A DNA stretch of 64,000 nucleotides from a virus (Duplodnaviria; Heunggongvirae; Uroviricota; Caudoviricetes), in the IMG/VR virus record IMGVR_UViG_2562617057_000010, positions 9,241 through 73,240 of that record, one strand, 5' to 3'. This document shows positions 26,363-45,860 of this stretch, in pieces. The first letter of the stretch is position 1; each line of letters starts with the position of its first letter. The notes below the pieces were generated by a model that did no database searches, was not told where the DNA came from, and saw nothing but the letters and a program-made list of their open reading frames with translations. A program made the translations under genes and the position numbers.

Positions 26363-27662
26363 TCTGGCGTATGCCGCACGCCTCCCGCCAAAGGAGGCTG
26401 TCGCGTATTTCCGCGCCAAAGGCTACAACATCACCTGGAACTGGTACGAACAACTGGCAGACGCGCACGCCCGCGCCTTTACCGTTGCCAAAGCCACCCG
26501 GATGGATGTCCTGACCACAATCCGTGGGGAAGTGGAGCGGGCTGTCAGTGAAGGCATCACCCGTGAAGAATTTACCCGCACACTGGCCCCCCGGCTGCAA
26601 AAACTCGGATGGTGGGGAAAACAAATCATCGTGGATGCAGAGGGAAACGCGAAGGTAATCGAGCTGGGCAGTCCGCGTCGTCTGGCAACCATTTATAACG
26701 TCAATACCCGTACAGCGTACGGGGCGGGACGTTATGCACAGATGATGAATACCGCAGATTTGTATCCGTACTGGCAGTACGTTGCCGTTATGGATGGCAG
26801 AACACGCCCGGAACATGCGCGGCTGCACAATATGGTTTTCCGGTATGACGACATTTTCTGGCAGACGCATTACCCGCCCAATGGCTGGAACTGCCGCTGT
26901 CGCGTCCGGGCGCTGTCTGCGGCCCGCATGAAAGAACTGGGGCTACAGGTCAGTTATGGGGCGTCATTCATGAATACCCGCGAAGTGGATGCCGGTACGG
27001 ATGAAAGCACCGGAGAGATTTTCCGCACATCGTCAACCACGTTTGACAACGGTCGGGTAAAAATGACGCCGGATGTGGGCTGGTCATATAACCCCGGTTC
27101 GGCGGCATTTGGTACGGATCAGGCACTGATTCGAAAACTGGTGGAAGTTCGTGACGCGCAGCTGCGTGAGCAGGTTGTTCAGACGCTGAATAACAGCCGG
27201 GAGCGTCAGCTTGCTTTTTCCCTCTGGCTTAAACGTCTGGCGAAATCACGCCGGGCCGGACATGAGGTCCGTGCGCTGGGGTTTATGACGGAAGCCGTGG
27301 CGGAGGCCGTATATCAGCGCACCGGGAATATGCCAGCCCGTCTGCTTGTGATGAACGGAAAAAGTCTGGCGACCACTGCTGATGCCGCCCTGAAACTGGA
27401 GGATTTACAGCGTCTGCCGTCACTGATGGCAAAACCACAGGCGGTATTGTGGGACAGGGAGAACCACCAGTTGCTGTATGTTGTGGCAACCCGCGACGGC
27501 ACTGCAAAAGTTGTGGTCAGAACATCGCAGGCTGTCAGCAAACAGAATGACCGGGCGGATGTGCTGGTCAGTATCAGCCGCGTATCTGCACAGTCGCTTG
27601 AAGCCGCGATTGCTGACGGGATGATTGACATACTGGAGGGGCATGTGGAGGTGAATAAGTGA
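26343..27662 (+). CDS. head morphogenesis protein (Mu F / gp30-like)
   Basis: About 440-aa ORF after portal; start uncertain (26307 or 26343). Confidence 0.7.
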   Translation: MPQQTIDLAYAARLPPKEAVAYFRAKGYNITWNWYEQLADAHARAFTVAKATRMDVLTTIRGEVERAVSEGITREEFTRTLAPRLQKLGWWGKQIIVDAEGNAKVIELGSPRRLATIYNVNTRTAYGAGRYAQMMNTADLYPYWQYVAVMDGRTRPEHARLHNMVFRYDDIFWQTHYPPNGWNCRCRVRALSAARMKELGLQVSYGASFMNTREVDAGTDESTGEIFRTSSTTFDNGRVKMTPDVGWSYNPGSAAFGTDQALIRKLVEVRDAQLREQVVQTLNNSRERQLAFSLWLKRLAKSRRAGHEVRALGFMTEAVAEAVYQRTGNMPARLLVMNGKSLATTADAALKLEDLQRLPSLMAKPQAVLWDRENHQLLYVVATRDGTAKVVVRTSQAVSKQNDRADVLVSISRVSAQSLEAAIADGMIDILEGHVEVNK

Positions 27663-28129
27663 GTCTTGATATGAACGTTGCCGTGGATGTGCGACGTATT
27701 CAGCTTGCGCTGGATGAACTGGGAACCGTCACACGTGACCGCGTCATTCCCCGTGTGATGGCTGCGGCGCTGCTGTCATCCACGGAACAGGCATTTGAAC
27801 GGCAGGCAGACCCGGATACAGGGAAAGGCTGGGAAGCGTGGAGCGATTCGTGGCTGGCATGGCGTCAGGATCATGGTTTTGTTCCGGGCAGTATTCTTAC
27901 CCTGCATGGCGATCTGGCACGCAGCATTACCACCGATTATGGACAGGATTATGCCCTGATTGGTTCGCCAAAAATTTATGCTGCCATTCATCAGTGGGGC
28001 GGTACACCCGATATGGCCCCCCGCCCGGCAGGCGTTCCTGCGCGTCCTTATATGGGGCTGGATAAGACCGGGGAACAGGAAATTTTTGATGCCATCAGAA
28101 AACGCGTCAGCGCCGCTCTGAGGCAATAA
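27659..28129 (+). CDS. virion morphogenesis protein (Mu G-like)
   Basis: 156-aa ORF overlapping F stop, followed by a ~200-bp noncoding gap as in Mu. Confidence 0.6.
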   Translation: MSLDMNVAVDVRRIQLALDELGTVTRDRVIPRVMAAALLSSTEQAFERQADPDTGKGWEAWSDSWLAWRQDHGFVPGSILTLHGDLARSITTDYGQDYALIGSPKIYAAIHQWGGTPDMAPRPAGVPARPYMGLDKTGEQEIFDAIRKRVSAALRQ

Positions 28130-28325
28130 ACAGAATCAGGCATAAAATCAGCCGCACAGATTTTTTAAAACGCGCCACGGGATTTTTAAACCGGTATTTA
28201 ACGGTGTATGAATCCCGTTTTATCTTCCTTCCACTTTCTTTCTCCAGTACTCAAATAGCATAACCCCAGATTTTCCCGCACCTCCCGCAAACTGACTGCT
28301 CACAAACCATGATGAGCAGCAGGAC
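28130..28325. promoter_or_regulatory. central noncoding gap; candidate strong gyrase site
   Basis: 196-bp intergenic region between G-like and I-like genes about 18.7 kb from the left end (element centre); assignment by conserved position only. Confidence 0.3.
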
Positions 28326-29411
28326 ATGAAAAAACACGCGATTGGCATTGCCGCACTGAGTGCGCTGTCCATTGACGATGACGGCTGGTGCCAGCTATTG
28401 CCTGCCGGTCATTTCAGTGCCCGTGATGGTCGTCCGTTTGATGTGACAGGCGGTCAGGGGTGGTTCATCGACGGTGAGATTGCCGGGCGTCTGGTTGAAG
28501 GCGTTCGCGCGCTCAACCAGGACGTGCTGATTGATTACGAGCATAACCAGCTACGTAAGGACAAAGGATTACCCCCGGAACAACTCGTCGCGGCTGGCTG
28601 GTTTAACGCCGATGAAATGCAGTGGCGTGAAGGTGAAGGGTTATTTATCCACCCACGCTGGACGGCGGCGGCCCAGCAGCGCATCGATGACGGCGAATTT
28701 GGTTATCTCTCTGCGGTTTTTCCGTATGACACCGCCACCGGTGCGGTGCTGCAAATCCGCCTTGCTGCGCTGACCAATGACCCCGGTGCCACCGGCATGA
28801 AAAAGCTGACCGCACTGGCGGCAGACCTTCCCGACATCCTTCAACAGGAGAACAAACCCATGAATGAAACGCTGCGCAAGCTGCTTGCGCGTCTTGGGGT
28901 GACTGTCCCCGAAAATGCAGACATCACCGATGAACAGGCAACAGCGGCACTGACCGCACTGGACACGCTGGAAAGTAATGCCGGGAAAGTGGCGTCGTTA
29001 TCCGCCGAACTGGAAAAGGCACAGAACGCCGCCGTTGACCTGACGAAATACGTCCCGGTGGAAAGCTACAACGCCCTGCGTGATGAACTGGCACAGGCGA
29101 CTGCACAAAGCGCCACAGCCAGCCTGAGCGCCGTTCTGGACAAGGCGGAACAGGAAGGCCGCATTTTCAAAAGCGAACGTACCTATCTGGAACAGCTTGG
29201 CGGTCAGATTGGCGTGGCGGCACTGTCGGCACAGCTTGAGAAAAAACAGCCCATCGCTGCGTTATCTGCCATGCAGACCACAACGGTACAAAACCTGTCA
29301 CAGGAAAAACCGGCAGTGGCGGTGCTGTCTGCTGATGAACAGGCAGCAGTGAAGGCGCTCGGCATTACTGAGGCTGAGTATCTGAAAATGAAACAGGAAC
29401 AAGAAAAATGA
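28326..29411 (+). CDS. head protease/scaffold (Mu I-like)
   Basis: 361-aa ORF directly upstream of major capsid gene; C-terminal Ala/Gln-rich helical region typical of scaffolds. Confidence 0.7.
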   Translation: MKKHAIGIAALSALSIDDDGWCQLLPAGHFSARDGRPFDVTGGQGWFIDGEIAGRLVEGVRALNQDVLIDYEHNQLRKDKGLPPEQLVAAGWFNADEMQWREGEGLFIHPRWTAAAQQRIDDGEFGYLSAVFPYDTATGAVLQIRLAALTNDPGATGMKKLTALAADLPDILQQENKPMNETLRKLLARLGVTVPENADITDEQATAALTALDTLESNAGKVASLSAELEKAQNAAVDLTKYVPVESYNALRDELAQATAQSATASLSAVLDKAEQEGRIFKSERTYLEQLGGQIGVAALSAQLEKKQPIAALSAMQTTTVQNLSQEKPAVAVLSADEQAAVKALGITEAEYLKMKQEQEK

Positions 29412-30325
29412 TTGTCACCCCGGCATCCATTAAAGCCCTGATGACCTCCTGGCGTAAGGATTTTCAGGGCGGTCTTGAAGACGCCCCGTCGCAGTACAGC
29501 AAAATTGCAATGGTGGTGAACTCTTCCACCCGCAGTAATACCTATGGCTGGCTGGGTAAATTCCCGACCCTGAAAGAATGGGTGGGTAAGCGAACCATTC
29601 AGCAAATGGAAGCGCATGGCTACTCTATCGCCAATAAAACGTTTGAAGGCACCGTGGGTATTTCCCGTGATGACTTCGAGGATGACAATCTGGGTATTTA
29701 TGCGCCGATTTTTCAGGAGATGGGCCGTTCTGCGGCAGTTCAGCCGGATGAGCTGATTTTTAAACTTCTGAAAGATGGCTTTACCCAGCCCTGCTATGAC
29801 GGTCAGAACTTCTTCGACAAGGAGCATCCGGTATATCCGAATGTGGACGGCACGGGCAGCGCGGTTAATACCTCCAACATCGTTGAGCAGGACAGCTTCA
29901 GCGGTCTGCCATTCTATCTGCTGGACTGCTCCCGCGCAGTCAAACCGCTGATTTTCCAGGAGCGCCGCAAACCGGAACTGGTCGCACGTACCCGTATCGA
30001 TGACGACCACGTTTTTATGGATAACGAGTTCCTGTTTGGTGCCAGCGCCCGCCGTGCTGCCGGTTACGGCTTCTGGCAGATGGCTGTCGCGGTAAAAGGC
30101 GATCTGACGCTGGATAACCTCTGGAAGGGCTGGCAACTGATGCGATCTTTTGAAGGTGATGGCGGTAAGAAGCTGGGCCTGAAGCCGACGCATATCGTTG
30201 TACCGGTCGGGCTGGAAAAAGCCGCAGAGCAACTGCTTAACCGTGAACTGTTCGCGGATGGCAATACCACCGTCTCCAACGAGATGAAGGGCAAGCTGCA
30301 ACTGGTTGTCGCTGACTACCTGTAA
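29408..30325 (+). CDS. major capsid protein (Mu T-like)
   Basis: 305-aa ORF overlapping protease/scaffold stop, followed by a hairpin at 30330-30358. Confidence 0.8.
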   Translation: MIVTPASIKALMTSWRKDFQGGLEDAPSQYSKIAMVVNSSTRSNTYGWLGKFPTLKEWVGKRTIQQMEAHGYSIANKTFEGTVGISRDDFEDDNLGIYAPIFQEMGRSAAVQPDELIFKLLKDGFTQPCYDGQNFFDKEHPVYPNVDGTGSAVNTSNIVEQDSFSGLPFYLLDCSRAVKPLIFQERRKPELVARTRIDDDHVFMDNEFLFGASARRAAGYGFWQMAVAVKGDLTLDNLWKGWQLMRSFEGDGGKKLGLKPTHIVVPVGLEKAAEQLLNRELFADGNTTVSNEMKGKLQLVVADYL

Positions 30326-30391
30326 CCGTCATTAAAAGGCGGTTCAGACCGCCTTTTAACCTGATTTAAAGGAAAAGGAGGAGCATGTGTT

Positions 30392-30802
30392 ATGTCAGGC
30401 ACTTCGCTTAATTCACAACGGCTGGACACTTCTCGCATCACTTGCACGGCGATTATTAAATGCCTTCGTCCGGTCTACCGCCGCGCCGGAATCGCCTTTA
30501 CACGTGGCGAAAACACCGTGGAAGTCACCGAAGAACAACTGGCGATCATTCGTGCCGACAGCGTGCTGTCTGTGGTATCTGCATCGTCAGCAGAAACGCT
30601 CGCTGAGGCTGGGGGGCTGGACGTTCTGGGTGTGGGCGATCTGAACGCCCGTATCCGTGCGACCGTTGCCGGTCTGGATAAGGCAAACCCGGAACACTTT
30701 ACCGCAGGGGGGGAACCCAAAGTGAAAGCCGTCAGTGCGGCGCTGGGGGAACCGGTAAGCAGCGCGCAAATCAAAGCGGCGCAGGCTGAGGCGGATGCAT
30801 GA
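30392..30802 (+). CDS. hypothetical head-associated protein (Mu gp35 position)
   Basis: 136-aa ORF with AAGGAGGAG upstream. Confidence 0.5.
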   Translation: MSGTSLNSQRLDTSRITCTAIIKCLRPVYRRAGIAFTRGENTVEVTEEQLAIIRADSVLSVVSASSAETLAEAGGLDVLGVGDLNARIRATVAGLDKANPEHFTAGGEPKVKAVSAALGEPVSSAQIKAAQAEADA

Positions 30803-31224
30803 ATTACGCGACGGTAAATGACCTGTGCGCCCGCTATACACGTACGCGGCTGGATATTCTCACCCGCCCTAAAACAGCGGACGGGCAGCCGGATGATGCC
30901 GTGGCAGAACAGGCACTGGCAGATGCTTCGGCCTTTATTGATGGCTATCTCGCCGCGCGCTTTGTTCTGCCGCTTACCGTCGTCCCCTCACTGCTGAAAC
31001 GGCAGTGTTGCGTGGTGGCCTGGTTTTATCTGAATGAATCACAACCCACCGAGCAGATCACCGCTGCCTACAGGGACACAGTGCGCTGGCTGGAACAGGT
31101 GCGCGATGGCAAAACAGATCCCGGCGTGGAAAGCAGGACGGCAGCCTCGCCGGATGGTGAAAACCTTGTGCAGGTGCAGTCTGACGCGCCGGTCTTCTCA
31201 CGAAAACAGAAGGGGTTTATCTGA
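30799..31224 (+). CDS. head-tail connector-type protein (Mu gp36 position)
   Basis: 141-aa ORF, 4-nt overlaps. Confidence 0.5.
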   Translation: MNYATVNDLCARYTRTRLDILTRPKTADGQPDDAVAEQALADASAFIDGYLAARFVLPLTVVPSLLKRQCCVVAWFYLNESQPTEQITAAYRDTVRWLEQVRDGKTDPGVESRTAASPDGENLVQVQSDAPVFSRKQKGFI

Positions 31225-31772
31225 TGCTGGAAGAAACCGAAGCCGCACTGCTGGCGCGCGTTCGTGAGTTGTTTGGGGCAACCCTGCGGCAGGTGGAACC
31301 CCTTACCGGCACATGGACTAACGAGGATGTGCACCGTCTCTTTCTGGCCCCGCCATCGGTATTTCTGGCATGGATGGGCTGTGGTGAGGGGCGTACGCGT
31401 CGGGAAGTTGAAAGTCGCTGGGCATTTTTTGTCGTGGCGGAGTTGCTGAACGGGGAACAGGTAAACCGGCCCGGTATTTATCAGATTGTGGAGCGACTGA
31501 TTGCCGGTGTTAACGGTCAGACGTTTGGCCCGACCACCGGGATGAGACTGACGCAGGTCAGAAATCTTTGTGACGACAACCGTATCAATGCCGGTGTGGT
31601 GCTTTACGGTGTTCTGTTCAGTGGCACTACCCCGCTGCCGTCCGTGGTGGACATGGATTCGCTGGATGATTACGAGCGCCACTGGCAGACCTGGAAATTC
31701 CCGGACGAAACCCCGGAATTTGCCGCACATATCAATGTGAATCAGGAAAAGGATCATGATGCTGAAAATTAA
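31224..31772 (+). CDS. tail completion-type protein (Mu gp37 position)
   Basis: 182-aa ORF. Confidence 0.5.
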   Translation: MLEETEAALLARVRELFGATLRQVEPLTGTWTNEDVHRLFLAPPSVFLAWMGCGEGRTRREVESRWAFFVVAELLNGEQVNRPGIYQIVERLIAGVNGQTFGPTTGMRLTQVRNLCDDNRINAGVVLYGVLFSGTTPLPSVVDMDSLDDYERHWQTWKFPDETPEFAAHINVNQEKDHDAEN

Positions 31773-31962
31773 ACCCGCAGCGGGAAAAGCCATCCGTGAC
31801 CCGCTCACGATGAAATTACTGGCGTCTGAGGGAGAAGAAAAGCCCCGTAACAGTTTCTGGATACGTCGCCTTGCAGCCGGTGATGTGGTTGAAGTCGGGA
31901 GCACCGAAAACACGGCGGATGATACCGACACTGCGCCGAAAAAACGGAGTAAATCGAAATGA
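31756..31962 (+). CDS. small protein (Mu gp38 position)
   Basis: 68-aa ORF overlapping both neighbours. Confidence 0.4.
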
Positions 31963-33446
31963 GCGATATTTCATTTAACGCGATCCCGTCAGATGTTCGC
32001 GTTCCTCTGACGTATATCGAATTTGATAACAGTAATGCCGTCAGCGGAACACCGGCACCCCGTCAGCGCGTGCTGATGTTCGGGCAAAGCGGAAGTAAAG
32101 CCAGTGCGGCACCAGACGTGCCTGTCCGTATCCGTTCCGGCTCACAGGCCAGTGCGGCGTTTGGTCAGGGTTCCATGCTGGCACTGATGGCAGATGCATT
32201 CCTGAACGCTAACCGCGTGGCGGAGCTGTGGTGTATCCCGCAGGGGAACGGCACCGGTAATGCTGCTGTCGGTGAAATCTCACTGTCCGGAACGGCAGGC
32301 GAAAACGGCTCGCTTGTGACTTACATTGCCGGTCAGCGACTGGCGGTATCTGTCGCAGCAGGTGCAACGGGAGCGGCGCTGGCTGACCTGCTGGTTGCCC
32401 GAATCAAAGGCCAGCCGGATTTACCGGTGACGGCAGAAGTTCGCGCAGACAGCGGAGATGATGACACCCATGCAGATGTGGTTCTGAGTGCAAAATTTAT
32501 TGGTGCATTATCTGCCGTGGACGTGCGCTGGAACTATTACGCGGGTGAAACCACCCCTTACGGGATTATTACGGCATTCAAAGCCGCCACCGGGAAAAAC
32601 GGCAACCCGGATATCAGCGCCAGTATCGCGGGGATGGGCGATCTGCAATACAAATACATTGTGATGCCCTATACCGATGAACCGAACCTGAACCTGTTAC
32701 GCACGGAATTACAGGAACGCTGGGGACCGGTCAATCAGGCTGATGGCTTTGCCGTGACAGTGCTGTCCGGCACGTATGGCGATATTTCCACGTTTGGTGT
32801 CAGCCGTAATGACCATCTGATCTCCTGTATGGGGATTGCCGGTGCACCGGAACCGTCATATCTGTACGCCGCCACACTGTGTGCCGTTGCCAGCCAGGCG
32901 CTTTCCATCGACCCGGCACGTCCGCTCCAGACGCTGACGCTGCCCGGCAGGCTACCGCCTGCGGTGGGCGATCGTTTCACCTGGTCAGAACGTAATGCGC
33001 TGCTGTTTGACGGCATCTCCACGTTTAACGTGAATGATGGCGGTGAAATGCAGATTGAACGCATGATCACAATGTACCGCACGAACAGGTACGGCGACAG
33101 TGACCCGTCTTATCTGAATGTGAACACCATCGCCACGCTGAGTTATCTGCGTTATTCGCTGCGAACCCGTATCACACAGAAATTCCCGCGCCACAAACTG
33201 GCAAGTGATGGCACCCGCTTTGCCACCGGTCAGGCGGTGGTGACACCTTCCGTGATCCGGACCGAGTTGCTGGCACTGTTTGAAGAATGGGAAAACGACG
33301 GGCTGGTTGAAGACTTCGACACGTTCAAAGAGGAGCTGTATGTCGTGCGTAATACAGCCGATCAGGATCGTCTTGATGTGTTGTGCGGCCCGAACCTGAT
33401 TAACCAGTTCCGCATCTTTGCGGCACAGATCCAGTTCATTCTGTAA
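31959..33446 (+). CDS. contractile tail sheath protein (Mu L-like)
   Basis: 495 aa (Mu L size), followed by 118-aa tube gene. Confidence 0.85.
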
Positions 33447-33455
33447 GGAGCATTT

Positions 33456-33812
33456 ATGGCAGGAAATCAGCGTCAGGGGGTGGCGTACATCCGTGTCAAT
33501 GGCATGGAGCTTGAATCAATGGAAGGTGCTTCCTTCACGCCGTCCGGCACCACCCGTGAAGAAGTGACCGGCTCGCGGGTTTACGGCTGGAAAGGGAAAC
33601 CCCGCGCCGCAAAGCTGGAATGCAAAATTCCGGGCGGTGGTGATATCGGTCTGGATGAAATCATCGGCTGGGAAAACATCACGGCAGAGTTTCAGGCAGA
33701 CACCGGTGAAACCTGGATGATGGCGAATGCCTGGCAGGCAGATGAACCGAAAAACGACGGCGGCGAAATTTCGCTGGTACTGATGGCAAAACAAAGCAAA
33801 CGCATTGCATAA
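33456..33812 (+). CDS. tail tube protein (Mu M-like)
   Basis: 118-aa ORF between sheath and chaperone. Confidence 0.8.
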   Translation: MAGNQRQGVAYIRVNGMELESMEGASFTPSGTTREEVTGSRVYGWKGKPRAAKLECKIPGGGDIGLDEIIGWENITAEFQADTGETWMMANAWQADEPKNDGGEISLVLMAKQSKRIA

Positions 33813-33821
33813 GGGGAAACA

Positions 33822-34256
33822 ATGGACGAAATGAATTTAAGTCCTGAAGCACAGGAACTGCATGACAGCATTGTGGCAGAACTTCAGTCCGGCGGGCTGA
33901 AACTGAAAGACGGCCTGCCGTTCGGCACCGGTGACGAGACTGAAATGCAGTATGACGTGACGCTGCGTGAACTGACCGCAGGCGATCTGATTGATGCCCA
34001 GATGGCGGCTGAAAAAGTGGTAATGAGCAAGGAAGGCCCGGTGCTGGTCAGTTCCCCGTCCCTGATGGGACTGGAAATGCTGCGCCGTCAGATTGCCGGT
34101 GTGGGCTGCCTCAAAGGCCCGTTATCACTGGCGCTGATGCGTAAGCTGTCCGTCGATGACTTCCAGCGTCTGTCGCTGGCAGTGGAGCTGCGCGACATGG
34201 CGGTGGCGGCATCGCTGACGCAAGAACGGGGGCGAGTGGCTGCGGTGCCGGAATGA
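33822..34256 (+). CDS. tail assembly chaperone (Mu gp41 position)
   Basis: 144-aa ORF between tube and tape measure. Confidence 0.55.
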   Translation: MDEMNLSPEAQELHDSIVAELQSGGLKLKDGLPFGTGDETEMQYDVTLRELTAGDLIDAQMAAEKVVMSKEGPVLVSSPSLMGLEMLRRQIAGVGCLKGPLSLALMRKLSVDDFQRLSLAVELRDMAVAASLTQERGRVAAVPE

Positions 34257-34307
34257 TATTGAGAAAGCGGCGACAGCGATTGGCATCATTCTGAAAAGTG
34301 GCCCGGA

Positions 34308-36473
34308 ATGGGCCTTGTCCCTCCCGCTGTCCCGCTTTTTCCGGCACTGCCAGCAGGCGAAAACCCTCTCTCAATATCACCGTTAAATCAGGAGATTTCT
34401 GTGACCGGGAAACGCTTAAAAGCGTCTGTCATTATTGATCTTAATGGCAATCTTTCCCGGCGTTCCCGCCAGTATTCGAACCAGATAAACGCCCTGTCCC
34501 GCAGCGGGCAGAGTTCCCTGCGTGCCCTGCGTATGGAGGTTGTGCGCGTTTCTGGTGCCATTGACAGAATGGGTTCTCTGTCAACCCGTACATTCCGAAT
34601 GCTGTCAGCCGGGGCGCTGGGTATCGCTGGCGTGGGTTACACCGCCAATAAACTGTTTATTGGTGCAGCCGCCCAGCGTGAGCAGCAGATTATCGCCATG
34701 AACTCGCTCTATCACGGCGATAAGGCCAGAGCACAGGCCATGATGGCGTGGGCGAAGCAGAACGCAAAAGAAACCACCTGGGGGCTGGGTGGTGTTCTGC
34801 AGGAGATCCGCACATCAACTGCGTTTGGCATGACTGATGCCCAGGTAAAACAGTTCATCACCATGCTACAGAACCAGGGCGCGATGCATGGCTGGGATTT
34901 ACCCACTGCACAGGGGGCTTCGTTACAGTTCAAACAGATGTTTGCCCGTCAGCAAATCACGGCGGCGGATGCCAACCTGCTGACCGGTTACGGTATCAAC
35001 GTTTACAAGGTGCTGGCAGATGCAACGGGTGAGGATGAGAAAAAAATCCGTAAGCTGGGTGAAAAAGGCAAACTGGGCCTGAAATCCATCCTGACGGTGT
35101 TCAGAATCTTACTGGAACAGTCAAAAGGCGCACAGGCGGCGGCCATGAACTCCTGGGACGGGATGATGGCCCAGATGGAGGGCAATCTGCTTGAGTTTCG
35201 TACAAAGGTGGCAAACAGCGGCCCCTTTGAAGAAATCAAGAACGAGATGCGCCGGGTACTTAACTGGCACGACATGGCGGATAAATCCGGGGAACTTGAC
35301 GCACTGGCAGAAAACATTGGTCAGAAATTTCTGACCACGTTCAGAACGGTAAAAATCGCGGCGCAGGAATTATGGCGCTGGCTGAAACCGGGTAAAGATG
35401 CGCTGGCATGGGTTGACCAGAATATTGCCAGCCTGAAAAAACTGGCTGCTGTTCTGGTGTCTGTCTGGCTTGCCAATAAAGCCCTGAGAGCAGGCTGGGC
35501 CGTGGCAAAACCTTCGTGGCAGGTTGCCAGTTACCCGTTTAAAACCGGGCGTCGTATGTGGCGCTGGATGCGGAACCGCAAACGTGGGCGGGCAGGTCTG
35601 CCGGTGCCGGATGCCATGACGTCTGAGACGCTGTTGCAGGGCACCGGCATTCAGCGTGTGTTTGTCATCAACTGGCCCCGTGGATTTGGTGGCTACGGGA
35701 GTGGCGGCGGTCGTCGCGGACGGAGCGGCGGAAGAATGGCCCCGCTGTTACCCCGCCAGCCGTTATTGCTGTCCGGGCCACAGCCGCTGGCATTACCTGC
35801 ACCACGCCCTGTACTGGCATTACCCCCACCCGGCGTACCGGTAACGGCACGGCCTGCACCATTACCTTTACCCGGTAAATCCGGTCTTCTGAGCAGGCTT
35901 GCAGGCAGTGCTGCCGGGCAACTGGTTACGGGAACGGTCGGAAAGCTGGCTGATGCCGGGCGTGCTGTTGGCGGGTGGTTTTCCGGTATCGGAAACAAAC
36001 TTGCAGGCAGTGCGATCGGTCGGGTTGTGACAAAAGGTGCCGGGGCGCTGGGCTGGATGGGGAAAGGTGCCGGTCGTGCGTTGTCATGTCTGGGTGGCCC
36101 GGTAATGGGGGCACTCCAGCTTGCCCCCGTCCTGATGGATGAGCAGGCGTCAACCCATGAAAAAGCAGGCGCAATTGGCAGTACAGCCGGTGCATGGCTC
36201 GGCGGTGCCGTTGGCAGCCTTGCCGGACCGCTGGGTACGGTTGCCGGTGCCACGCTGGGCAGTGTCGCCGGGGAGTATCTGGGCGGTTTTGTAACCGACC
36301 TGTATCAGAAATGGACGGCCCCGGATAAGGAACCGCAGGAACAAAAAGTGAATGCGGAAGCCTCGCTGCGCGTCGAACTTGGCGAGGGGTTACGCCTGAC
36401 CAGTTCCCGTGTCACCGAGGATGGTATGGGGCTGAATATTTACGCGGGCGATAACTACATTACGGGCTGGTAA
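34308..36473 (+). CDS. tail tape measure protein (Mu Y-like)
   Basis: About 700 aa, Gly/Ala/Pro-rich; alternative start GTG at 34401 with AGGAG upstream. Confidence 0.8.
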
Positions 36474-36477
36474 AACC

Positions 36478-37965
36478 ATGTTTGAAGATGCTTTAAATGC
36501 CGTTAATGCTGTCCGGGATAAAACCGGTGGAGGCAGGAAAACAACCGGCAAAGGCACGTTCCGTAACGTGCCGTTTCTCGTCATCGAGGAGCAAAAACAG
36601 GCTGGCGGACGTCGCCTGGTTAAACGCGAGTACCCGTTACGTGATACCGGCGGCGTCAATGACCTGGGGAAAAAGCTTCGCTCCCGTACATTCAGCGCCT
36701 GCATTCTGAACAGTAACGCAGAAACAGCCAGAGATGAAGCGGATGCGCTGATGGATGCTCTTGATGCTCCGGGCAGCGGTGAGCTGGTACATCCTGATTT
36801 CGGCACTGTGGACGTCATGGTGGATTCATGGGAATGCCGCACTAAAGCGGATGAACTGAATTATTACGCGTTCACCGTTACCGTTTATCCGTCGTTGCAG
36901 GATACTGCCCCGGACGCAGAAACAGACACCAGTGCAGCCGTACCGGCACAGGCTGTTGCTGTAACCGGTTCTCTGGGGGATACGCTGTCCTCTGTCTGGC
37001 AGACCGTAAAAGATGGCACTGCGGCGGCAACCGCCGTGATGGAAGCTGTAACCGGTGTCATCGATGATATCAGTGATGCGGTGGACAATCTGGGGGTTAC
37101 GCAGACTGTCAGCGGTCTGATGGGATCGCTTTCTGCGATGAAAGGCTCTGTGACCAGCCTGATTAACCAGCCTGCCATGCTGGCCTCCTCGCTGATGGGG
37201 GCGCTGTCCGGCGTTTCATCGTTATGCGATACCCGGACAGCATTTTCCACATGGAACCGTCTGGCGCAGCGATTCGAACGTCGCCATGCCGCCACCGCAG
37301 GCAGACAGGGGGCAATCACAACCTCGTACAACAGTCCGGTTGCAGAAAAAAATATTGCCACACTGAACTACGTCATGCTGGCAGCGGCGCAGACATACCG
37401 GGCAGAAGCTGCCAGCCAGGCACTGACTGCGGCACTGGATTTCAGTCGCCGGATGGATAATGCCGCCCGTACACCTGTACTGGATGCCCCGTCCACCACA
37501 ACCGGCACAGCCAGCGGGGCCAGCAGCACATCTGCTACCGTCACACAGGGACAGTTACAGTTAACTACCATAACCCCGAACGGCGGCTTTTCACAGGTAT
37601 CCTTTTCAGACAGTGGTACAGCCACGCCCCCGGTATTTGAAAGTGTGTCCGATATCGGAAAAACAGCCGCCATGCTGGGGGCTGCACTGGATACCGTCAT
37701 TCTGACGGCATCTGAGCAGGGCTTTTCGACAGACAGCGTTCAGCTTACGCAACTGCGTCTGCTGGTTGTTGCCGATCTGGAAAAACGCGGGCTGCAACTG
37801 GCGGGCAGTGAAACGCACCGCCTGCCGGAGACGATGCCTGCAATGGTGGCCCTGTACCGTTACACAGGAAACAGCCGGAACTGGCAACGGCTGGCCCGCA
37901 GGAACGGTATCAGCAACCCGTTGTTTGTTCCCGGTGGCGTCAGTATTGAGGTGATTAATGAGTAA
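36478..37965 (+). CDS. DNA circularization protein (Mu N-like)
   Basis: 495-aa ORF immediately after tape measure as in Mu. Confidence 0.7.
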
Positions 37966-39091
37966 TACCGTCACGCTGCGAACGGATGGCAGGCTTTTTA
38001 CCGGCTGGACGTCAGTCTCTGTCACCCGCTCGATTGAATCCGTAGCCGGATATTTTGAGCTGGGGGTGAACGTGCCACCGGATACGGATTTATCCGGGCT
38101 GGCACCGGGGAAGGCGTTCACGCTGGAAATCGAGGGGCAGATTGTCTGCACCGGTTATATCGATTCACGGCGACGCCAGATGACCGCTGACAGTATAAAA
38201 ATCACTGTCGCCGGACGTGACAAAACGGCTGACCTGATTGACTGTGCTGCCGTTTACAGTGGCGGACAGTGGAAAAACCGCACACTGGAGCAGATTGCGC
38301 GTGACCTGTGCGCCCCTTATGGCGTTACCGTTCGCTGGGAGCTTTCCGATAAGGAAAGTTCGGCAGTTTTTCCCGGCTTCACGCTGGACCATTCAGAAAC
38401 CGTTTATGAGGCGCTGGTGCGCGCCTCCCGCGCACGCGGTGTACTGATGACCAGCAATGCCGCCGGAGAGCTGGTATTCAGCCGGGCTGCCAGCACAGCC
38501 ACTGATGAGCTGGTTCTCGGAGAAAATCTGCTGACACTGGATTTTGATGAAGATTTCCGCGACCGGTTCAGCGAATACATTGTTAAGGGATATGCACGCG
38601 CGAACGGCGCTGACGGGGATGATATTGATGCGGAAAGTATTGTCTCCCGGAAAGGAACCGCCACTGACAGTGATGTGACCCGTTACAGACCGATGATCAT
38701 CATTGCTGACAGCAAAATTACGGCGAAGGATGCACAGGCCCGCGCCCTGCGTGAGCAACGCCGCAGACTGGCAAAATCCATCACTTTTGAGGCAGAAATT
38801 GACGGATGGACACGCAGGGACGGGCAACTCTGGATGCCGAATCTGCTGGTCACTATTGATGCCTCGAAATATGCCATCAAAACCACGGAATTACTGGTCA
38901 GCAAAGTCACCCTGATACTGAATGACCAGGACGGGCTGAAAACCCGCGTCAGCCTTGCACCACGCGAAGGCTTTCTGGTGCCGGTTGAAAGCGACCGCAA
39001 ATCCAGAGGGGATGGTAATGATGGCGTTGATGATCTGGTTGAGGCTTATTTCCGCAGACACCCGGAGAAAACACCACCATGGAAAGAGTAA
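37958..39091 (+). CDS. baseplate hub protein (Mu P / gp44-like)
   Basis: 377-aa ORF in Mu baseplate order N-P-Q-V-W-R. Confidence 0.7.
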
Positions 39092-39672
39092 ATGATTCCG
39101 CCCTGAACCGCCTGCTGATGCCGTTGATGCGTCGTGTACGGCTGATGGTGGCCCGCGCCGTTGTTAACGTGATTCACGACGGGCGAAAGGTTCAGAACCT
39201 GCAGGTCGGTCTGCTGGATGATGAGGAATCTGATGATGTGGAGCGCCTGCAAAATTACGGGCATTTCAGCGTTCCCCTGCCGGGCGCAGAAGCGCTGATT
39301 GCCTGTGTGGGCGCACAACGTGATCAGGGGATTGCCGTTGTGGTGGAAGACCGCCGCTACCGCCCGACAAATCTTGAACCGGGAGATGCAGGCATTTACC
39401 ACCACGAGGGGCATCGTATCAGGCTGACAAAGGACGGACGCTGCATCATTACCTGTAAAACGGTTGAGGTTTACGCTGATGAAAGTATGACCGTTGACAC
39501 CCCGAAAACCACGTTTACCGGCGATGTTGAAATTCTGAAAGGCCTCAGCGTTAAAGGTGAAAGTGACTTTGCAGGCAATATCAGCGCCCCGGATGCCATC
39601 ATCAATGGCAAATCGACGGATAAGCATATCCACCGTGGCGACAGCGGCGGAACCACGGGGCCGATGCAATGA
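39079..39672 (+). CDS. baseplate spike/assembly protein (Mu gp45-like)
   Basis: 197-aa ORF. Confidence 0.65.
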   Translation: MERVNDSALNRLLMPLMRRVRLMVARAVVNVIHDGRKVQNLQVGLLDDEESDDVERLQNYGHFSVPLPGAEALIACVGAQRDQGIAVVVEDRRYRPTNLEPGDAGIYHHEGHRIRLTKDGRCIITCKTVEVYADESMTVDTPKTTFTGDVEILKGLSVKGESDFAGNISAPDAIINGKSTDKHIHRGDSGGTTGPMQ

Positions 39673-40106
39673 CCGATTTAGCCATTATCTGGACGAACGG
39701 ACGCGGCGATATTGCACAGGATGGCATTGATATGCTGACCGACGACAGCCTGACAACCGATGTGACAATCTCCCTGTTTACCGACCGGCGCGCGCTGGAT
39801 TCTGACACCCTGCCGGATGGTTCAGATGATCGCCGTGGATGGTGGGGTGACAGTTACCGCGACCGCCCCATCGGTTCGCGGTTGTGGCTGTTATCACGTG
39901 AAAAAGCCACACCGGATACGCTGGAACGCGCCAGAGGGTATGCCGAAGAGGCGCTGGAATGGCTGAAAACAGCGGGCCGGGTAAGTGCGGTTAACGTCAG
40001 AGCGGAACAGTTACATCAGGGCTGGTTATACCTCTACATTGCACTGACATTACCGGATGGTTCCGTTATTCCTTATGAGTTTAAAGCAGCATTTAACGGG
40101 GTTTAA
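39669..40106 (+). CDS. baseplate wedge protein, gp25/gpW-like (Mu gp46 position)
   Basis: 145-aa ORF. Confidence 0.6.
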   Translation: MTDLAIIWTNGRGDIAQDGIDMLTDDSLTTDVTISLFTDRRALDSDTLPDGSDDRRGWWGDSYRDRPIGSRLWLLSREKATPDTLERARGYAEEALEWLKTAGRVSAVNVRAEQLHQGWLYLYIALTLPDGSVIPYEFKAAFNGV

Positions 40107-41189
40107 ATGGCTTATTCACCACCGACATTATCATCGCTGATTGCCCGTACAGAACAGAATATTGAACAGCGCCTGCCGGGTAGCTGGCCTCAGGCCCGTG
40201 AAAAAACGCTGAGTGCCATTGCTTATGCTCAGGCGGGCCTTGCTGCCGGTTGTTACGAGCATATTTCATGGGTTGGACGGCAGATTATCCCGTCGACAGC
40301 AGATGAAGATGAGTTGCTGGAGCACTGCCGGTTCTGGGGCGTGCGCCGCAAACAGGCGACAGCCGCCAGCGGCCCGCTGACTGTCACCACATCGGCAGCG
40401 ACCACCATTCCTGCCGGTACACGCTGGCAGCGTGCTGATGGTGTGGTTTACAGCCTGGCTGATGCCATTGTGATTGACCGTGCAGGAACGACGGAAATTA
40501 CCGTTACCGCACTGGCTGCCGGTGAGGCAGGAAATACCGGTGAGAATACCCTTTTAACGTTGATTACTCCGGTTGCCTGTGTTGTTTCCGATGCCATCAC
40601 TGTAAAAGGGTTTTCCGGTGGAGCTGATATTGAGAGTGCAGCGGAGCTGCTGTCACGGCTGGAATATCGTGTCCAGTATCCTCCGTTCGGCGGTAATCAG
40701 TTTGATTATGTTCGCTGGGCGCGTGAAGTCAGCGGCGTTACCCGTGCCTGGTGTTTTCCGACATGGAAAGGCGGTGGCACAGTCGGGGTGACGTTTGTTA
40801 TGGATAACCGGAGCAATATTTTTCCACAACCGGCAGATGTGGAACGTGTGGCGGATTATATCGCCGGTCATACTGACCCGATAACCGGCCTGATTGTCGG
40901 GCAGCCTGATGGTGTAAATGTCACGGTATTTGCGCCAGAGTCAAAGCCGGTAAATCCACGGATTTATATATCACCGAAGACTGCCGAACTGAAACAGGCC
41001 ATTACCCACGCCATTAATACCATGTTTTTTAATGAGGTGACGCCGGGCGGTGCACTTGCCCCCTCCCGTATTATCCGTGCGGTGGCAGGTGTTACCGGTC
41101 TGGATGATTTTGAAGTGCGTTTCCCGACAGAGATCCAGCGTTCGGAGAATACGGAACTGTTAACACCGGGGACAATTGAATGGCTGTAA
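40107..41189 (+). CDS. baseplate J-like protein (Mu gp47 position)
   Basis: 360-aa ORF. Confidence 0.75.
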   Translation: MAYSPPTLSSLIARTEQNIEQRLPGSWPQAREKTLSAIAYAQAGLAAGCYEHISWVGRQIIPSTADEDELLEHCRFWGVRRKQATAASGPLTVTTSAATTIPAGTRWQRADGVVYSLADAIVIDRAGTTEITVTALAAGEAGNTGENTLLTLITPVACVVSDAITVKGFSGGADIESAAELLSRLEYRVQYPPFGGNQFDYVRWAREVSGVTRAWCFPTWKGGGTVGVTFVMDNRSNIFPQPADVERVADYIAGHTDPITGLIVGQPDGVNVTVFAPESKPVNPRIYISPKTAELKQAITHAINTMFFNEVTPGGALAPSRIIRAVAGVTGLDDFEVRFPTEIQRSENTELLTPGTIEWL

Positions 41190-41722
41190 CACCCTGGCAG
41201 ACGGCCTTTCTGCAATTACTGCCGTCAGGGCTTGCCTGGAATAAAAGCCCCGACAGCAAATTATCTGCGCTGGCGCAGGCCATCAGCGACGTGATTGCCA
41301 CTGCGGCGGATGATGCGCGGCAAATACTGCGGGAGCGTTTCCCGTCCACATCCCGCTGGTATCTGGGTGAGTGGGAATCACTTCTGGGGTTGCCGGACTG
41401 TACAAGCGAAAACGGCACCCTGTCCGAACGCCAGCGGGCTGCCGCGAATAAAATGCGTATGACCGGCAATCTGAGTCGGCGCTTTTATGAATGGCTGGCT
41501 GCGCAGTACGGTTTTACCGTCAGGCTGACGGATTCCACAGAAGGCCAGTGGGTTACGCAGGTCAATATTTACGGTATTAAAAATTATCGCAACGCAACGG
41601 TGCTGGATAATGTTCTGACGCCGTTACGTGTTTATGAATCGGGTGCGCTGGAATGTTTACTGGAGAAATATAAACCCGCGCATCAGATTTATAAATTTGT
41701 TTACCATGACGGAGATAACTAA
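41180..41722 (+). CDS. tail protein (Mu gp48 position, gpI-like)
   Basis: 180-aa ORF before the tail fibre gene. Confidence 0.6.
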   Translation: MAVTPWQTAFLQLLPSGLAWNKSPDSKLSALAQAISDVIATAADDARQILRERFPSTSRWYLGEWESLLGLPDCTSENGTLSERQRAAANKMRMTGNLSRRFYEWLAAQYGFTVRLTDSTEGQWVTQVNIYGIKNYRNATVLDNVLTPLRVYESGALECLLEKYKPAHQIYKFVYHDGDN

Positions 41723-43233
41723 TGTTTTATATTGATAACGACAGCGGCGTAACCGTCATGCCGCCCGTATCCGCCCAGCGTAGTGCTATCGTTCGCTGGT
41801 TTTCAGAAGGTGACGGGAATAATGTTATCACATGGCCCGGCATGGACTGGTTTAATATTGTGCAGGCGGAGTTATTAAACACGCTGGAAGAAGCCGGTAT
41901 TCAACCGGATAAAACAAAATTAAACCAGCTTGCACTGTCCATTAAAGCCATTATGAGCAATAACGCGCTGCTGATAAAAAATAACCTCAGCGAAATTAAA
42001 ACTGCCGGGGCATCAGCACAGCGTACAGCACGTGAAAATCTGGATATCTATGATGCCAGCCTGAACAAAAAAGGACTCGTTCAGCTAACCAGTGCCACTG
42101 ACAGCCCCAGTGAAACGCTGGCAGCCACCGCAAAAGCGGTGAAAATTGCGATGGATAATGCCAGTGCCCGTCTGGCAAAAGACCGGAACGGAGCAGATAT
42201 TCCCAATAAGCCGCTGTTTATCCAAAACGTCGGTTTACAGGAAACGGTAAACCGGGCCAGGAACGCTGTGCAAAAAAATGGCGATACCTTGTCCGGCGGA
42301 CTTACTTTTGAAAACAACTCAATCCTTGCCTGGATTCGGAATACTGACTGGGCAAAGATTGGTTTTAAAAATGATGCCGACAGCGATACTGATTCCTACA
42401 TGTGGTTTGAAACAGGCGACAACGGCAATGAATATTTCAAATGGAGACACCGCATCATTGGCACCCGGCCTAAAGACCTGATGAATCTTAAATGGAATGC
42501 TTTGTCTGTTCTTGTTAAAGCCCTTTTCAGCAGTGAAGTGAAAATATCGACAGTCAATGCACTGAGGATATTTAATTCATCTTTTGGTGCCATTTTTCGC
42601 CGTTCTGAAGAATGCCTGCATATCATCCCTACACGAGAGAATGAGGGAGAAAATGGTAATATAGGGCCATTACGCCCCTTTACGCTTAATCTCAGAACTG
42701 GCCGGATAAGCATGGGGCATGGTCTGGTTGTTACAGGAGATATATTTGCAAACCGTTTTGCAATTAACAGTAGTACCGGCATGTGGATTCATATGCGTGA
42801 CCAGAATGTTATTCTGGGCCGTAATGCGGTATCCAACGATGGTGCGCAGGCATTGCTTCGCCAGGACCATACCGACCGTAAATTCGTAATTGGTGGGCTG
42901 GGGAATAAGCAATTTGGCATCTACATGATTAATAACTCAAGGACAGCCAATGGCACCGATGGTCAGGCGTACATGGATAATAACGGTAACTGGCTTTGTG
43001 GTGCGCAAGTTATTCCCGGCAACTATGGCAATTTTGATTCCAGATATGTGAAAGATGTTCGACTTGGTACTCGTGTTGTTCAGGTCATGCAAAGAGGCGT
43101 GATGTATGAAAAATCAGGTCATGTAATAACAGGGCTTGGCATTATTGGCTCTGTTGATGGTGATGACCCAGCAGTATTCAGACCAATACAAAAATACATC
43201 AATGGCACATGGTATAACGTCGCACAGGTATAA
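41722..43233 (+). CDS. tail fibre protein S (constant part plus variable part Sv)
   Basis: 503 aa; gix-like site at codon ~167; C-terminus ...RPIQKYINGTWYNVAQV shared with the S' cassette end (...PVQYCINGTWYNAGSI). Confidence 0.85.
   Translation: MFYIDNDSGVTVMPPVSAQRSAIVRWFSEGDGNNVITWPGMDWFNIVQAELLNTLEEAGIQPDKTKLNQLALSIKAIMSNNALLIKNNLSEIKTAGASAQRTARENLDIYDASLNKKGLVQLTSATDSPSETLAATAKAVKIAMDNASARLAKDRNGADIPNKPLFIQNVGLQETVNRARNAVQKNGDTLSGGLTFENNSILAWIRNTDWAKIGFKNDADSDTDSYMWFETGDNGNEYFKWRHRIIGTRPKDLMNLKWNALSVLVKALFSSEVKISTVNALRIFNSSFGAIFRRSEECLHIIPTRENEGENGNIGPLRPFTLNLRTGRISMGHGLVVTGDIFANRFAINSSTGMWIHMRDQNVILGRNAVSNDGAQALLRQDHTDRKFVIGGLGNKQFGIYMINNSRTANGTDGQAYMDNNGNWLCGAQVIPGNYGNFDSRYVKDVRLGTRVVQVMQRGVMYEKSGHVITGLGIIGSVDGDDPAVFRPIQKYINGTWYNVAQV
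42218..42243 (+). other. gix-like invertase crossover site inside S (left G-segment boundary)
   Basis: TTATCCAAAACGTCGGTTTACAGGAA, imperfect 12-2-12 dyad of the gix/hix/cix type; no inverted second copy found. Confidence 0.6.
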
Positions 43234-43236
43234 ATC

Positions 43237-43764
43237 ATGCAGCATTTAAAAAACATCAGGTCAGGAAACCCAAAGATAAAAGAGCAATACCAATTAACAA
43301 AGAATTTTGACGTAATCTGGTTGTGGACAGAAGACGGAAAAAACTGGTATGAGGAAGTGAAGAACTTTCAGCCAGATACAATAAAGATTGTTTACGATGA
43401 AAATAATATTATTGTCGCCATCACTAAAGATGCCTCCACGCTTAATCCTGAAGGCTTTAGCGTCGTTGAGGTCCCCGATATAACAGCAAATCGTCGTGCC
43501 GATGATTCCGGGAAGTGGATGTTTAAGGACGGAGCTGTGGTTAAGCGGATTTATACGGCAGACGAACAGCAGCAACAGGCCGAATCACAAAAGGCCGCAT
43601 TGCTTTCCGAAGCTGAATCAGTCATCCAGCCGCTGGAGCGCTCTGTCAGGCTGAATATGGCGACGGATGAGGAACGCGCACGACTGGAGTCATGGGAACA
43701 CTATAGTGTTCTGGTCAGCCGTGTGGATACGGCAAATCCTGAATGGCCACAAAAGCCTGAATAA
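43237..43764 (+). CDS. tail fibre assembly protein U
   Basis: 175 aa; paralog of U' on the opposite strand ([22 protein letters not shown] vs [22 protein letters not shown]). Confidence 0.8.
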
Positions 43765-43769
43765 AAATT

Positions 43770-43789
43770 AAGGCCCGATAGCGGGCCTT
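43770..43789. terminator. bidirectional hairpin terminator between convergent U and U'
   Basis: AAGGCCCG-ATAG-CGGGCCTT perfect 8-bp stem with A-run upstream and T-run downstream. Confidence 0.6.
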
Positions 43790-43792
43790 GTT

Positions 43793-44326
43793 TCATTCTG
43801 GTTGTTCTGGAAACGTTACTGGCAGGCTGGAGGTGTCTGTGGATTCGACCTTCTGCGCATAGAGCATCCACTCGGTTAATTTTTGTTTATTCTCGTCGGA
43901 AATGATGCCCAGCCGTAGCTGTGAGTCCCATAGCTGAGTTTTATCCCTGACAAGTTGCAACAGACTTTGCTTTTCATTTTCCGCCTGTTGCCTCTGTTCT
44001 TCCCCGGTATAAGTTCGCTTTATCACTACGCCATCTTTGAACATCCATTTACCCGAAATATCAGCCCGGCGATTTGCTGTAATATCAGGTAATTCAATGA
44101 CGCTTGCGCCTTCCGGATTAATTGCTGAAACATCCTTTTCAATACAAATAATAACGCCGTTGTGGTCATAGACCATTTTCAACGTATCAGGCTGAAAGTT
44201 CTTTTGCTCCTCATACCAGTTTTTCCCATCCTCTGTATAAAGCCATTTGATGTTAAATTGCTTTGTTAGCTGGTATTGCTCTTTTGTTTCAGGATTACCA
44301 GCAGAAATGTTTTTTAAGTGCATCAT
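43793..44326 (-). CDS. tail fibre assembly protein U' (alternative cassette, not expressed in this orientation)
   Basis: 177-aa intact ORF paralogous to U. Confidence 0.75.
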   Translation of the reverse strand: MMHLKNISAGNPETKEQYQLTKQFNIKWLYTEDGKNWYEEQKNFQPDTLKMVYDHNGVIICIEKDVSAINPEGASVIELPDITANRRADISGKWMFKDGVVIKRTYTGEEQRQQAENEKQSLLQLVRDKTQLWDSQLRLGIISDENKQKLTEWMLYAQKVESTDTSSLPVTFPEQPE

Positions 44327-44328
44327 CG

Positions 44329-44841
44329 TTAAATACTCCCCGCGTTATACCACGTTCCATTAATGCAATACTGAACTGGCCTTGCCTGAGTTGTATCAAT
44401 TAGTGCATCTCTGTTTGAGTTAACGGAACCGGTAACAACATAACCTGACCTGTCAGACCAGCCGGGACCATTCCATGTCTGAACAGATGACAGACCACCA
44501 AGGCGAATACCTGTAATAAACCTTGAGTTACATTCTGCCTGCGTATATGCGCCAACATCTCTCGCTGATGGCTTGCGTGTTGTGGTGTAAAACTCTGACC
44601 AGCCAGCCTCAAATCCATAACCATCACGCGCTGAACGATAAAAAATACCGCCGTTCTTATAATTCACACGGAACTGTACAGCAGGGCAACTCCCCGTATT
44701 CATATTGAAGTGGAGTATTAATGCTGTTGCGCCTTTGATATCTGCATCATAAACACCGCTAATCAATGCAATATAGAAAACGACGATCGAATCAATTGAA
44801 TCGATCGGTAATACAGATCGATTATGTCCTGATAACCACAC
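44329..44841 (-). other. S' variable tail-fibre cassette remnant, 5'-truncated
   Basis: C-terminal fibre-tip homology to Sv; in-frame stop immediately upstream of the GTG at 44841; the first ~20 codons coincide with the mom GATC control region. Confidence 0.6.
44785..44819 (+). promoter_or_regulatory. three clustered GATC sites upstream of com-mom (Dam-dependent mom control region)
   Basis: GATC at 44785, 44803 and 44816, 75-110 bp upstream of com ATG, matching the known Mu mom regulation layout. Confidence 0.6.
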
Positions 44842-44893
44842 TCACCCCATGATGTTTTTTAAGATAGTGGCGAATTGATGCAAAGGAGGTGAG

Positions 44894-45082
44894 ATGAAAT
44901 CAATTCGCTGTAAGAACTGCAACAAACTGTTATTTAAGGCGGGTTCCTTTGATCACATTGAAATCAGGTGTCCGCGTTGCAAACGTCACATCATAATGCT
45001 GAATGCCTGCGAGCATCCCACGGAGAAACATTGTGGGAAAAGAGAAGAAATCACGCATTCTGACGAAACCGTGCGTTATTGA
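44894..45082 (+). CDS. com: Com zinc-finger translational activator of mom
   Basis: 62 aa, [16 protein letters not shown]...[12 protein letters not shown], matching Mu Com as recalled from memory; overlaps mom start. Confidence 0.85.
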
Positions 45083-45728
45083 GTATGAAGGCCAGATTGT
45101 TGGCTATGGTTCAAAGGAGCTGCGCGTTGAAACCATATCCTGCTGGCTGGCCCGCACAATCATTCAGACAAAACATTACTCCCGCCGTTTTGTGAATAAC
45201 TCTTACCTTCACCTGGGAGTATTCAGCGGACGTGAGCTGGTTGGCGTTCTCCAGTGGGGATATGCCCTTAACCCCAACTCAGGTCGTCGTGTCGTGCTTG
45301 AAACGGATAACCGGGGTTATATGGAGCTGAACCGCATGTGGCTACACGACGACATGCCCCGCAACTCTGAATCACGGGCCATCAGTTATGCGCTGAAAAC
45401 CATCAGATTACTGTATCCATCAGTGGAATGGGTACAGTCCTTTGCAGACGAACGCTGCGGACGTGCTGGCGTTGTGTATCAGGCGTCAAATTTTGATTTT
45501 ATTGGCGGCCATGAAAGCACGTTCTACGAGCTGGATGGCGAGTGGTATCACGAGATAACGATGAACGCGATTAAGCGCGGTGGACAACGAGGCGTGTATT
45601 TACGGGCTAATAAAGAGCGTGCCGTGGTGCATAAATTTAATCAGTATCGCTACATCAGGTTCCTGAACAAGCGAGCAAAGAAGCGGCTAAATACTAAGCT
45701 ATTCAGGATTCAGCCATATCCGAAATGA
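45003..45728 (+). CDS. mom: Mom DNA modification protein (acetyltransferase-like)
   Basis: 241-aa ORF overlapping com, Mu Mom-like, last gene before the right end. Confidence 0.85.
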
Positions 45729-45748
45729 TCCCATTTAATGAATAAAAA

Positions 45749-45846: not shown

Positions 45847-45860
45847 GCGCTTTACTTTCG

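Follow-up and report, generated by a model that had tools for sequence, protein, structure and literature searches.

The DNA analysed here is a stretch of 64,000 nucleotides from a tailed phage of the Caudoviricetes, referred to below as the window. In this stretch the genes of a tail assembly chaperone and of a tape measure protein follow each other in an unusual arrangement. As the original prediction had described it, both open reading frames lie in one frame with TGA-TAT-TGA between them, the tape-measure frame is open upstream of both of its candidate starts (ATG 34308 and GTG 34401), and the +1 frame is open as well, from 34219 to 34386. We wondered if this layout reflects readthrough, an unconventional route of recoding, or nothing at all.

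All of these coordinates were confirmed. The chaperone ORF (33822..34256), ATG 34308 and GTG 34401 belong to one common frame (position mod 3 = 0). In that frame, TGA 34254 and TGA 34260 are the sole stops between the two genes; they form the tandem TGA-TAT-TGA (34254..34262, + strand), which ends the chaperone gene and is unchanged throughout the Mu group. From 34263 on, no stop interrupts frame 0 of the window sequence, which runs on into the tape-measure gene. Stops are likewise absent from the +1 frame (mod 1) between 34219, directly after TGA 34216, and TAA 34384..34386; this frame overlaps the chaperone gene by 35 nt. The -1 frame is closed 38 nt beyond the chaperone stop in the window. 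Taken alone, this layout is within chance expectation. At the local base composition a stop-free run of 55 codons arises by chance with P ~0.11 and one of 46 codons with P ~0.16, and in 33% of long stop-to-stop ORFs of the window the +1 frame stays open for 124 nt or more beyond the stop. The layout is significant because it is conserved in relatives, and not by virtue of the window sequence alone.

Identity of the genes was established by profile searches. The chaperone gene (33822..34256, + strand) matches Pfam family PF23746, Gp41_Mu ("Tail assembly protein gp41"), with E=2.9e-34 and 117.8 bits against a cut-off of 27, and also PHROG 508, "tail assembly chaperone". Its product by standard decoding, gp41, has 144 amino acids and terminates at TGA 34254; it is homologous to Mu_41 of AF083977.1 and analogous to lambda G and P2 E. 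The tape measure gene (34401..36473, + strand), a homologue of Mu gp42, was recognised by Pfam TMP_3 (E=2e-14). Upstream of the chaperone lies the tail tube gene (33456..33812, + strand; Pfam Tail_tube, E=1.4e-34), homologous to Mu gp40/M and labelled tail tube protein in the records of Mu, D108 and SfMu, preceded by the Pfam-identified tail sheath gene (31959..33446). The tail tube gene settles the order as sheath, tube, Gp41_Mu chaperone and tape measure; the chaperone pair thus sits between the tail tube and tape-measure genes, as in G/GT-type systems. A promoter and terminator scan of 33400..34700 detected nothing above shuffle expectation and no internal promoter of the tape-measure gene.

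The second frame also has the form of the T part of a G/GT-type pair. It overlaps the 3' end of the chaperone gene, lacks a separate start and runs up to the start of the tape-measure gene, stopping 14 nt short of GTG 34401. Among its codons TTG 34315 alone is an ATG, GTG or TTG, and no Shine-Dalgarno sequence precedes it. The T-like extension comprises 51 codons and TAA 34384-34386 in the +1/-2 frame (34231..34386, + strand), equivalent to the corresponding part of Mu_56. Joined to the chaperone as join(33822..34232, 34231..34386), it yields a product of 188 aa, FS-gp41, with the junction ...QERG|GEWLRC.... When extension and fusion were searched against Pfam and NCBIfam, no family covered the T part; only PHROG 12783, of unknown function, does so (E=2.5e-29).

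Over 33456..34800 the window shares 99.8% nucleotide identity with Shigella phage SfMu, 95% with D108 and 94% with phage Mu, and positions 34221..34284 (alignment columns 72-135) are identical base for base in all four sequences. The Mu record AF083977.1 contains a joined CDS, Mu_56 (23552..24116), which maps exactly to window 33822..34386. The Mu_56 entry of that record carries the note [quoted passage not shown]. Mu is likewise listed as a case of -2 frameshifting in PMC5009743, which cites Xu, Hendrix & Duda 2004, and the same work is cited for the Mu frameshift in PMC2628397. Efficiency of the shift in Mu is given as ~2.2% (PMC3498833), and the review lists Mu as -2. The -2 product of Mu (188 aa), as rebuilt by us, coincides in full with UniProt P0DJY4 ("Probable tail assembly protein FS-gp41") and with the GenBank entry UIW09302.1; no database record matched the +1 version of the Mu product. 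D108 annotations present the second frame as gene 41.5 (48 aa), and SfMu records contain chaperone and tape measure alone, without a frameshift product. The peculiar arrangement of frames is the already-known -2 programmed frameshift of Mu gp41/FS-gp41, present in a prophage with a late region almost the same as that of SfMu; it is real but ordinary. Of the explanations offered originally, unconventional recoding was the right one: it is by the documented -2 frameshift of Mu that ribosomes enter the open +1 frame, and this frame encodes the T-like extension (AF083977.1, PMC5009743, PMC3498833).

The slip site is CGG_GGG_CGA (34227..34235, + strand), read in the zero frame as Arg-Gly-Arg within the codons CAA GAA CGG GGG CGA GUG. 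The 9-mer CGGGGGCGA was found once in the 64-kb window, and its G5 run (34228-34232) is the sole run of at least five G or C within the chaperone gene. On this sequence, tRNA-Gly can move back by two bases from GGG 34230-34232 to GGG 34228-34230 with perfect re-pairing, and the next codon would then be GGC 34231-34233 in the +1 frame. The absence of a clean slippery heptamer, stated in the original prediction, holds true for the pattern X_XXY_YYZ, which was sought across the whole chaperone ORF, both in-phase and out-of-phase, and not found. The conserved slip site at 34227..34235, which is not a heptamer, had escaped that reading.

Canonical -1 frameshifting was also considered and rejected: there is no heptamer, the -1 frame is closed at 38 nt, and the downstream fold resembles that of shuffled sequences. 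A stimulatory RNA structure was sought by folding of 34221..34330 in the window copy alone; the value of -35.7 kcal/mol, compared with -36.6 ± 3.5 for shuffles (z = 0.26), leaves such a structure unsupported. This agrees with a 2025 preprint (10.1101/2025.10.02.679949) in which the Mu 10-mer alone caused shifting in a purified cell-free system, at 14%, in a reporter assay that cannot tell -2 from +1.

We then examined conservation of the alternative frame in related genomes, which had been proposed as a check; the +1 frame proved open in all the relatives examined. The set of close relatives consists of 21 loci that represent 13 Mu-group haplotypes, aligned over 619 columns. Among these haplotypes 85 columns vary, CGG_GGG_CGA is invariant, and positions 34228-34256 are free of substitutions. 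The part that belongs to the extension only has 17 variable columns, and 10 of them are third positions of +1-frame codons. Its peptide is identical in 11 haplotypes, and the SfMu type differs by one I/V change.

The set of distant relatives comprises eight loci from Vibrio, Aliivibrio and metagenomic viruses, at 35-50% protein identity. A contig scan with a single protein yielded only two relatives, to which an alignment-based viral scan added four. Three loci (L022, L023 and L024) are near-identical and two others (L050 and L051) are similar to each other, so that the lineages, four or five, are fewer than the loci. All distant relatives carry CGG_GGG_CGA, or, in L050 and L051, CGG_GGG_GAG, shortly before the stop and in an unchanged codon phase. 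The core CGGGGG followed by C or G is kept in phase in L022-L026, L045, L046, L050 and L051. In all distant relatives the +1/-2 frame stays open for 115-142 nt past the stop and the -1 frame closes after 8-29 nt. Motif and phase are thus kept down to 35% identity, as is characteristic of a G/GT-type arrangement. Arg-Gly-Arg can be encoded in 144 ways; that the same codons are kept, even in Vibrio and Aliivibrio, points to selection on the nucleotides themselves.

Substitutions in the extension were further compared with those of L045, whose chaperone is 50% identical to that of the window. Identity of the extension peptides is 67%, above that of the chaperone body. Codon differences in the +1/-2 frame amount to 14 synonymous and 13 non-synonymous ones, none of them involving a stop, and of 39 differences 22 affect the third base of a +1-frame codon. 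Frame 0 of the same region contains no synonymous and 29 non-synonymous differences, two of which involve stops. To judge from the aligned sequences, this pattern fits coding in the +1 frame. The extension peptides of the most distant relatives are only 20-22% identical to that of the window and have in common their length and a ...LP(I/L/V)xR(L/F)... motif; at such identity, the case for homology of the T parts is weak. The phase-locked C-GG-GGG-(C/G) across Gp41_Mu may mean that G-run shifting by -2 (or +1) is an ancient signal, maybe one that works without a stimulator, and we regard the chances of this as about even; in L050 and L051, where the run is G6, the direction may differ.

Could the same extension be reached by a +1 shift at the same site? 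In this case tRNA-Gly would move from GGG 34230-32 to GGC 34231-33 with CGA waiting in the A site, giving a protein of 187 aa with the junction ...QERG|EWLRC.... A +1 and a -2 shift arrive in the same frame, E. coli decodes the Arg codon CGA slowly, and +1 re-pairing is perfect too on the G6 run of L050 and L051. The blindness of the reporter assay (10.1101/2025.10.02.679949) to direction is compatible with either shift. On the Mu-type motif, however, the +1 move leaves tRNA-Gly mismatched on GGC, whereas -2 re-pairing on GGG is perfect. The wording "verified -2" in the Mu_56 entry, the extra Gly in UniProt P0DJY4 and the listing of Mu as -2 in reviews speak against +1 as well, and we consider this alternative improbable. 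Even less probable is transcriptional slippage, in which RNA polymerase would add two G to the G5 run or drop one, so that a minority of mRNAs would encode the fusion. A transcript with G7 in place of G5 should give the same protein as the -2 shift, and peptides could not separate the two. Some assemblies do encode fusions of 187 aa (P0002 and P0008), as if one G were missing, which shows only a change of run length or a miscall. Known cases of productive transcriptional slippage use longer runs of A or T, and five G are short by comparison. Moreover, the conserved element takes in the flanking C and the codon phase. Conservation of phase disfavours slippage of the polymerase, because phase matters to re-pairing of tRNA and should not matter to polymerase. 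Both the +1 shift and transcriptional slippage are thus disfavoured by the logic of re-pairing, by conservation of phase and by the published verification.

The remaining two alternatives have a negligible probability. One of them is readthrough of TGA-TAT-TGA, which would fuse the chaperone to the tape measure, or initiation of the tape measure at ATG 34308. Either would be compatible with frame 0 of the window, which has no stop between 34263 and the tape-measure gene and contains this ATG. Nevertheless, readthrough, as suggested originally, would have to pass two stops within 9 nt, and 11 of the 13 haplotypes, Mu and D108 included, carry an additional frame-0 stop, TAA, at the 34359 position; a further stop, at 34305, is present in one haplotype. 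At 34359 the window reads GAA, which in the +1 frame amounts to a synonymous change (GCG/GCT, Ala). Since 11 of 13 haplotypes carry the TAA, open frame 0 between the genes is an accident of the SfMu type and cannot serve a conserved readthrough or an upstream start of the tape measure. The frame-0 differences from L045 listed above, with none synonymous, argue in the same direction. ATG 34308 also has no Shine-Dalgarno sequence, whereas GTG 34401 is preceded at 6 nt by AGGAG (34390..34394, + strand), where a ribosome-binding site is annotated in Mu; Mu, D108 and SfMu records all place the start at the position of 34401, where 12 of 13 haplotypes have ATG and the window has GTG. Hence the tape measure most likely starts at GTG 34401 and not at ATG 34308. 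According to the other alternative, the +1-frame ORF is translated separately as a small protein. Such a reading is embodied in the 48-aa "41.5" CDS of D108 records, and PHROG 12783 gathers stand-alone annotations of this kind. Yet the D108 41.5 annotation begins at a CTG codon, translation from TTG 34315 of the window would yield just 23 aa, and in every lineage the open frame, which begins ahead of the gp41 stop, overlaps the conserved slip site. Both readthrough and independent initiation are contradicted by these data.

We are therefore highly confident that the locus represents Mu-type -2 recoding of the tail assembly chaperone, the contractile-tail equivalent of lambda G/GT and of P2 E/E+E'. 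The present analysis shows the identities of the genes, their reading frames, the slip motif and how it is conserved, as well as purifying selection acting on the +1 frame. The direction (-2) and efficiency of the shift come from literature and annotation, -2 and +1 leading into the same frame with products that differ by one Gly.

By this Mu-type route, most ribosomes would make gp41 (33822..34256) and terminate at TGA 34254. In a small fraction of them, peptidyl-tRNA-Gly on GGG 34230-34232 would slip two bases back to GGG 34228-34230; these ribosomes would then read GGC 34231-34233 and carry on through the +1 frame until TAA 34384. The outcome would be a protein of 188 aa composed of gp41 residues 1-137 and a T-like tail of 51 residues. 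The frameshift would thereby fix the ratio of short and extended chaperone forms. If the analogy with lambda holds, the shared N-terminal part would bind or coat the tape measure protein, the rare extended form would recruit or bridge to the tail tube subunit, and neither form would stay in the virion. Likewise, gp41 was not resolved in the Mu particle by cryo-EM (PMC11915804). Chaperones of the lambda type are presumed to couple the tape measure to polymerisation of the tube (PMC5009743); the need of both forms for tail assembly has been demonstrated in lambda, and the role in Mu is extrapolated from there.

Among known systems, the closest is gp41/FS-gp41 of phage Mu (Mu_41/Mu_56, P0DJY4). 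It belongs to the same Gp41_Mu family and occupies the same place between tube and tape-measure genes. The slip motif and the overlap region of 29 nt are identical to those of the window, the +1-frame extension is the same apart from one I/V difference in 51 residues, and the stop and the position of the tape-measure start agree. The two differ by ~6% nucleotide divergence, by the start codon of the tape measure (ATG in Mu, GTG in the window and SfMu) and by the frame-0 TAA at 34359, which Mu has and the window lacks.

Lambda gpG/gpGT (Levin, Hendrix & Casjens 1993; Xu et al. 2013, 2014) are likewise two nested chaperones with one start, encoded directly upstream of the tape-measure gene. Lambda shifts by -1 on a canonical heptamer, G_GGA_AAG, whereas the window site would shift by -2 on a G5 run without any heptamer; the lambda tail is non-contractile, and there is no detectable sequence similarity between the two systems. 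The P2 pair gpE/gpE+E' comes from a phage with contractile tail and displays the same nested layout ahead of the tape-measure gene. Unlike the Mu-type site, the site of the P2-family prophage in the window is a textbook -1 heptamer.

Both types occur side by side in the window. The Mu-like prophage spans ~9487..45854 and is inserted within a P2-family prophage, which is uninterrupted in E. coli FDAARGOS_943. The chaperone gene of the latter lies at 4851..4364 (- strand), and its -1 site, A_AAA_AAA followed by TAA (4561..4555, - strand), provides a contrast inside one window; the -1 frame there (DUF6890) extends to the tape-measure start. Searches with canonical Mu end sequences, which bear on the ends of the Mu-like prophage, gave no match.

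What this analysis adds to the knowledge of Mu is modest: the SfMu reference lacks the frameshift product, and the G-run motif is kept across Gp41_Mu well beyond Mu. For annotation, the value lies in the fact that SfMu references and prophages like them miss the product that the Mu record and UniProt contain, and that the start of the tape measure belongs at 34401 and not at the upstream ATG. Predictors of recoding sites usually seek X_XXY_YYZ heptamers and would miss a short G-run site such as this one, so that its conservation throughout the family is a small useful addition. Biologically, the locus is a further instance of a rule already well studied, that of tail chaperones made in two forms by programmed frameshifting, here in the rare -2 variant.

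The Mu-like prophage (window 9487..45854) lies within a second prophage of the P2 family, as revealed by comparison of the flanks (1..9486 and 45855..64000) with E. coli FDAARGOS_943, where both run contiguously (NZ_CP065615.1 644427..653912 and 653909..672107). The insert is flanked on either side by the tetranucleotide CTTT (9483-9486 and 45855-45858), an apparent target-site duplication.

Sequence comparison shows the Mu-like prophage itself to be a mosaic, with late genes 99.8% identical to those of Shigella phage SfMu. Megablast found no match among phage records for the left (early) end, which is approximately 90% identical to a prophage of E. coli 06-00048 annotated with "Mu transposase C-terminal domain". 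The Mu left-end 25-mer was not found even when 3 mismatches were allowed. The sequence ATCTTGAATAA is repeated at both ends of the prophage (left, 9487..11324; right, 45760..45854), and these repeats may represent transposase binding sites with specificity unlike that of Mu.

Both prophages carry tail assembly chaperone genes. The P2-family pair (4851..4364, minus strand) possesses a textbook -1 site at 4561..4555, the 3' end of the chaperone (4851..4552) reading GTA_AAA_AAA_TAA. Its -1 frame (4555..4364) extends up to the start of the tape-measure gene (4364..2283) and is separately annotated as "DUF6890 family protein"; RefSeq treats chaperone and -1 frame as two independent genes.

In the Mu-like prophage, the tape-measure start (34401) is GTG, as in SfMu, and the corresponding codon is ATG in 12 of the 13 haplotypes compared, including Mu and D108. 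As regards its chaperone, gp41 (33822..34256), two public Logan assemblies encode 187-aa proteins (P0002 and P0008), homologous to 33822..34386, that combine gp41 and its extension (34231..34386) in a single frame, with junctions ERGEWL and ERGQWL, as if one G had been lost from the G5 run (34228-34232). These proteins could be genuine fused variants, or the fusions could stem from homopolymer sequencing errors.

In the most distant relatives, viral contigs IMGVR_UViG_3300028831_000816 (L050, site at 1538) and IMGVR_UViG_3300038701_000691 (L051, site at 1532), G5-C is replaced by a G6 run (CGG_GGG_GAG). Perfect re-pairing would be expected there for -2 as well as for +1, so the direction of the shift in these viruses could differ from that in Mu.
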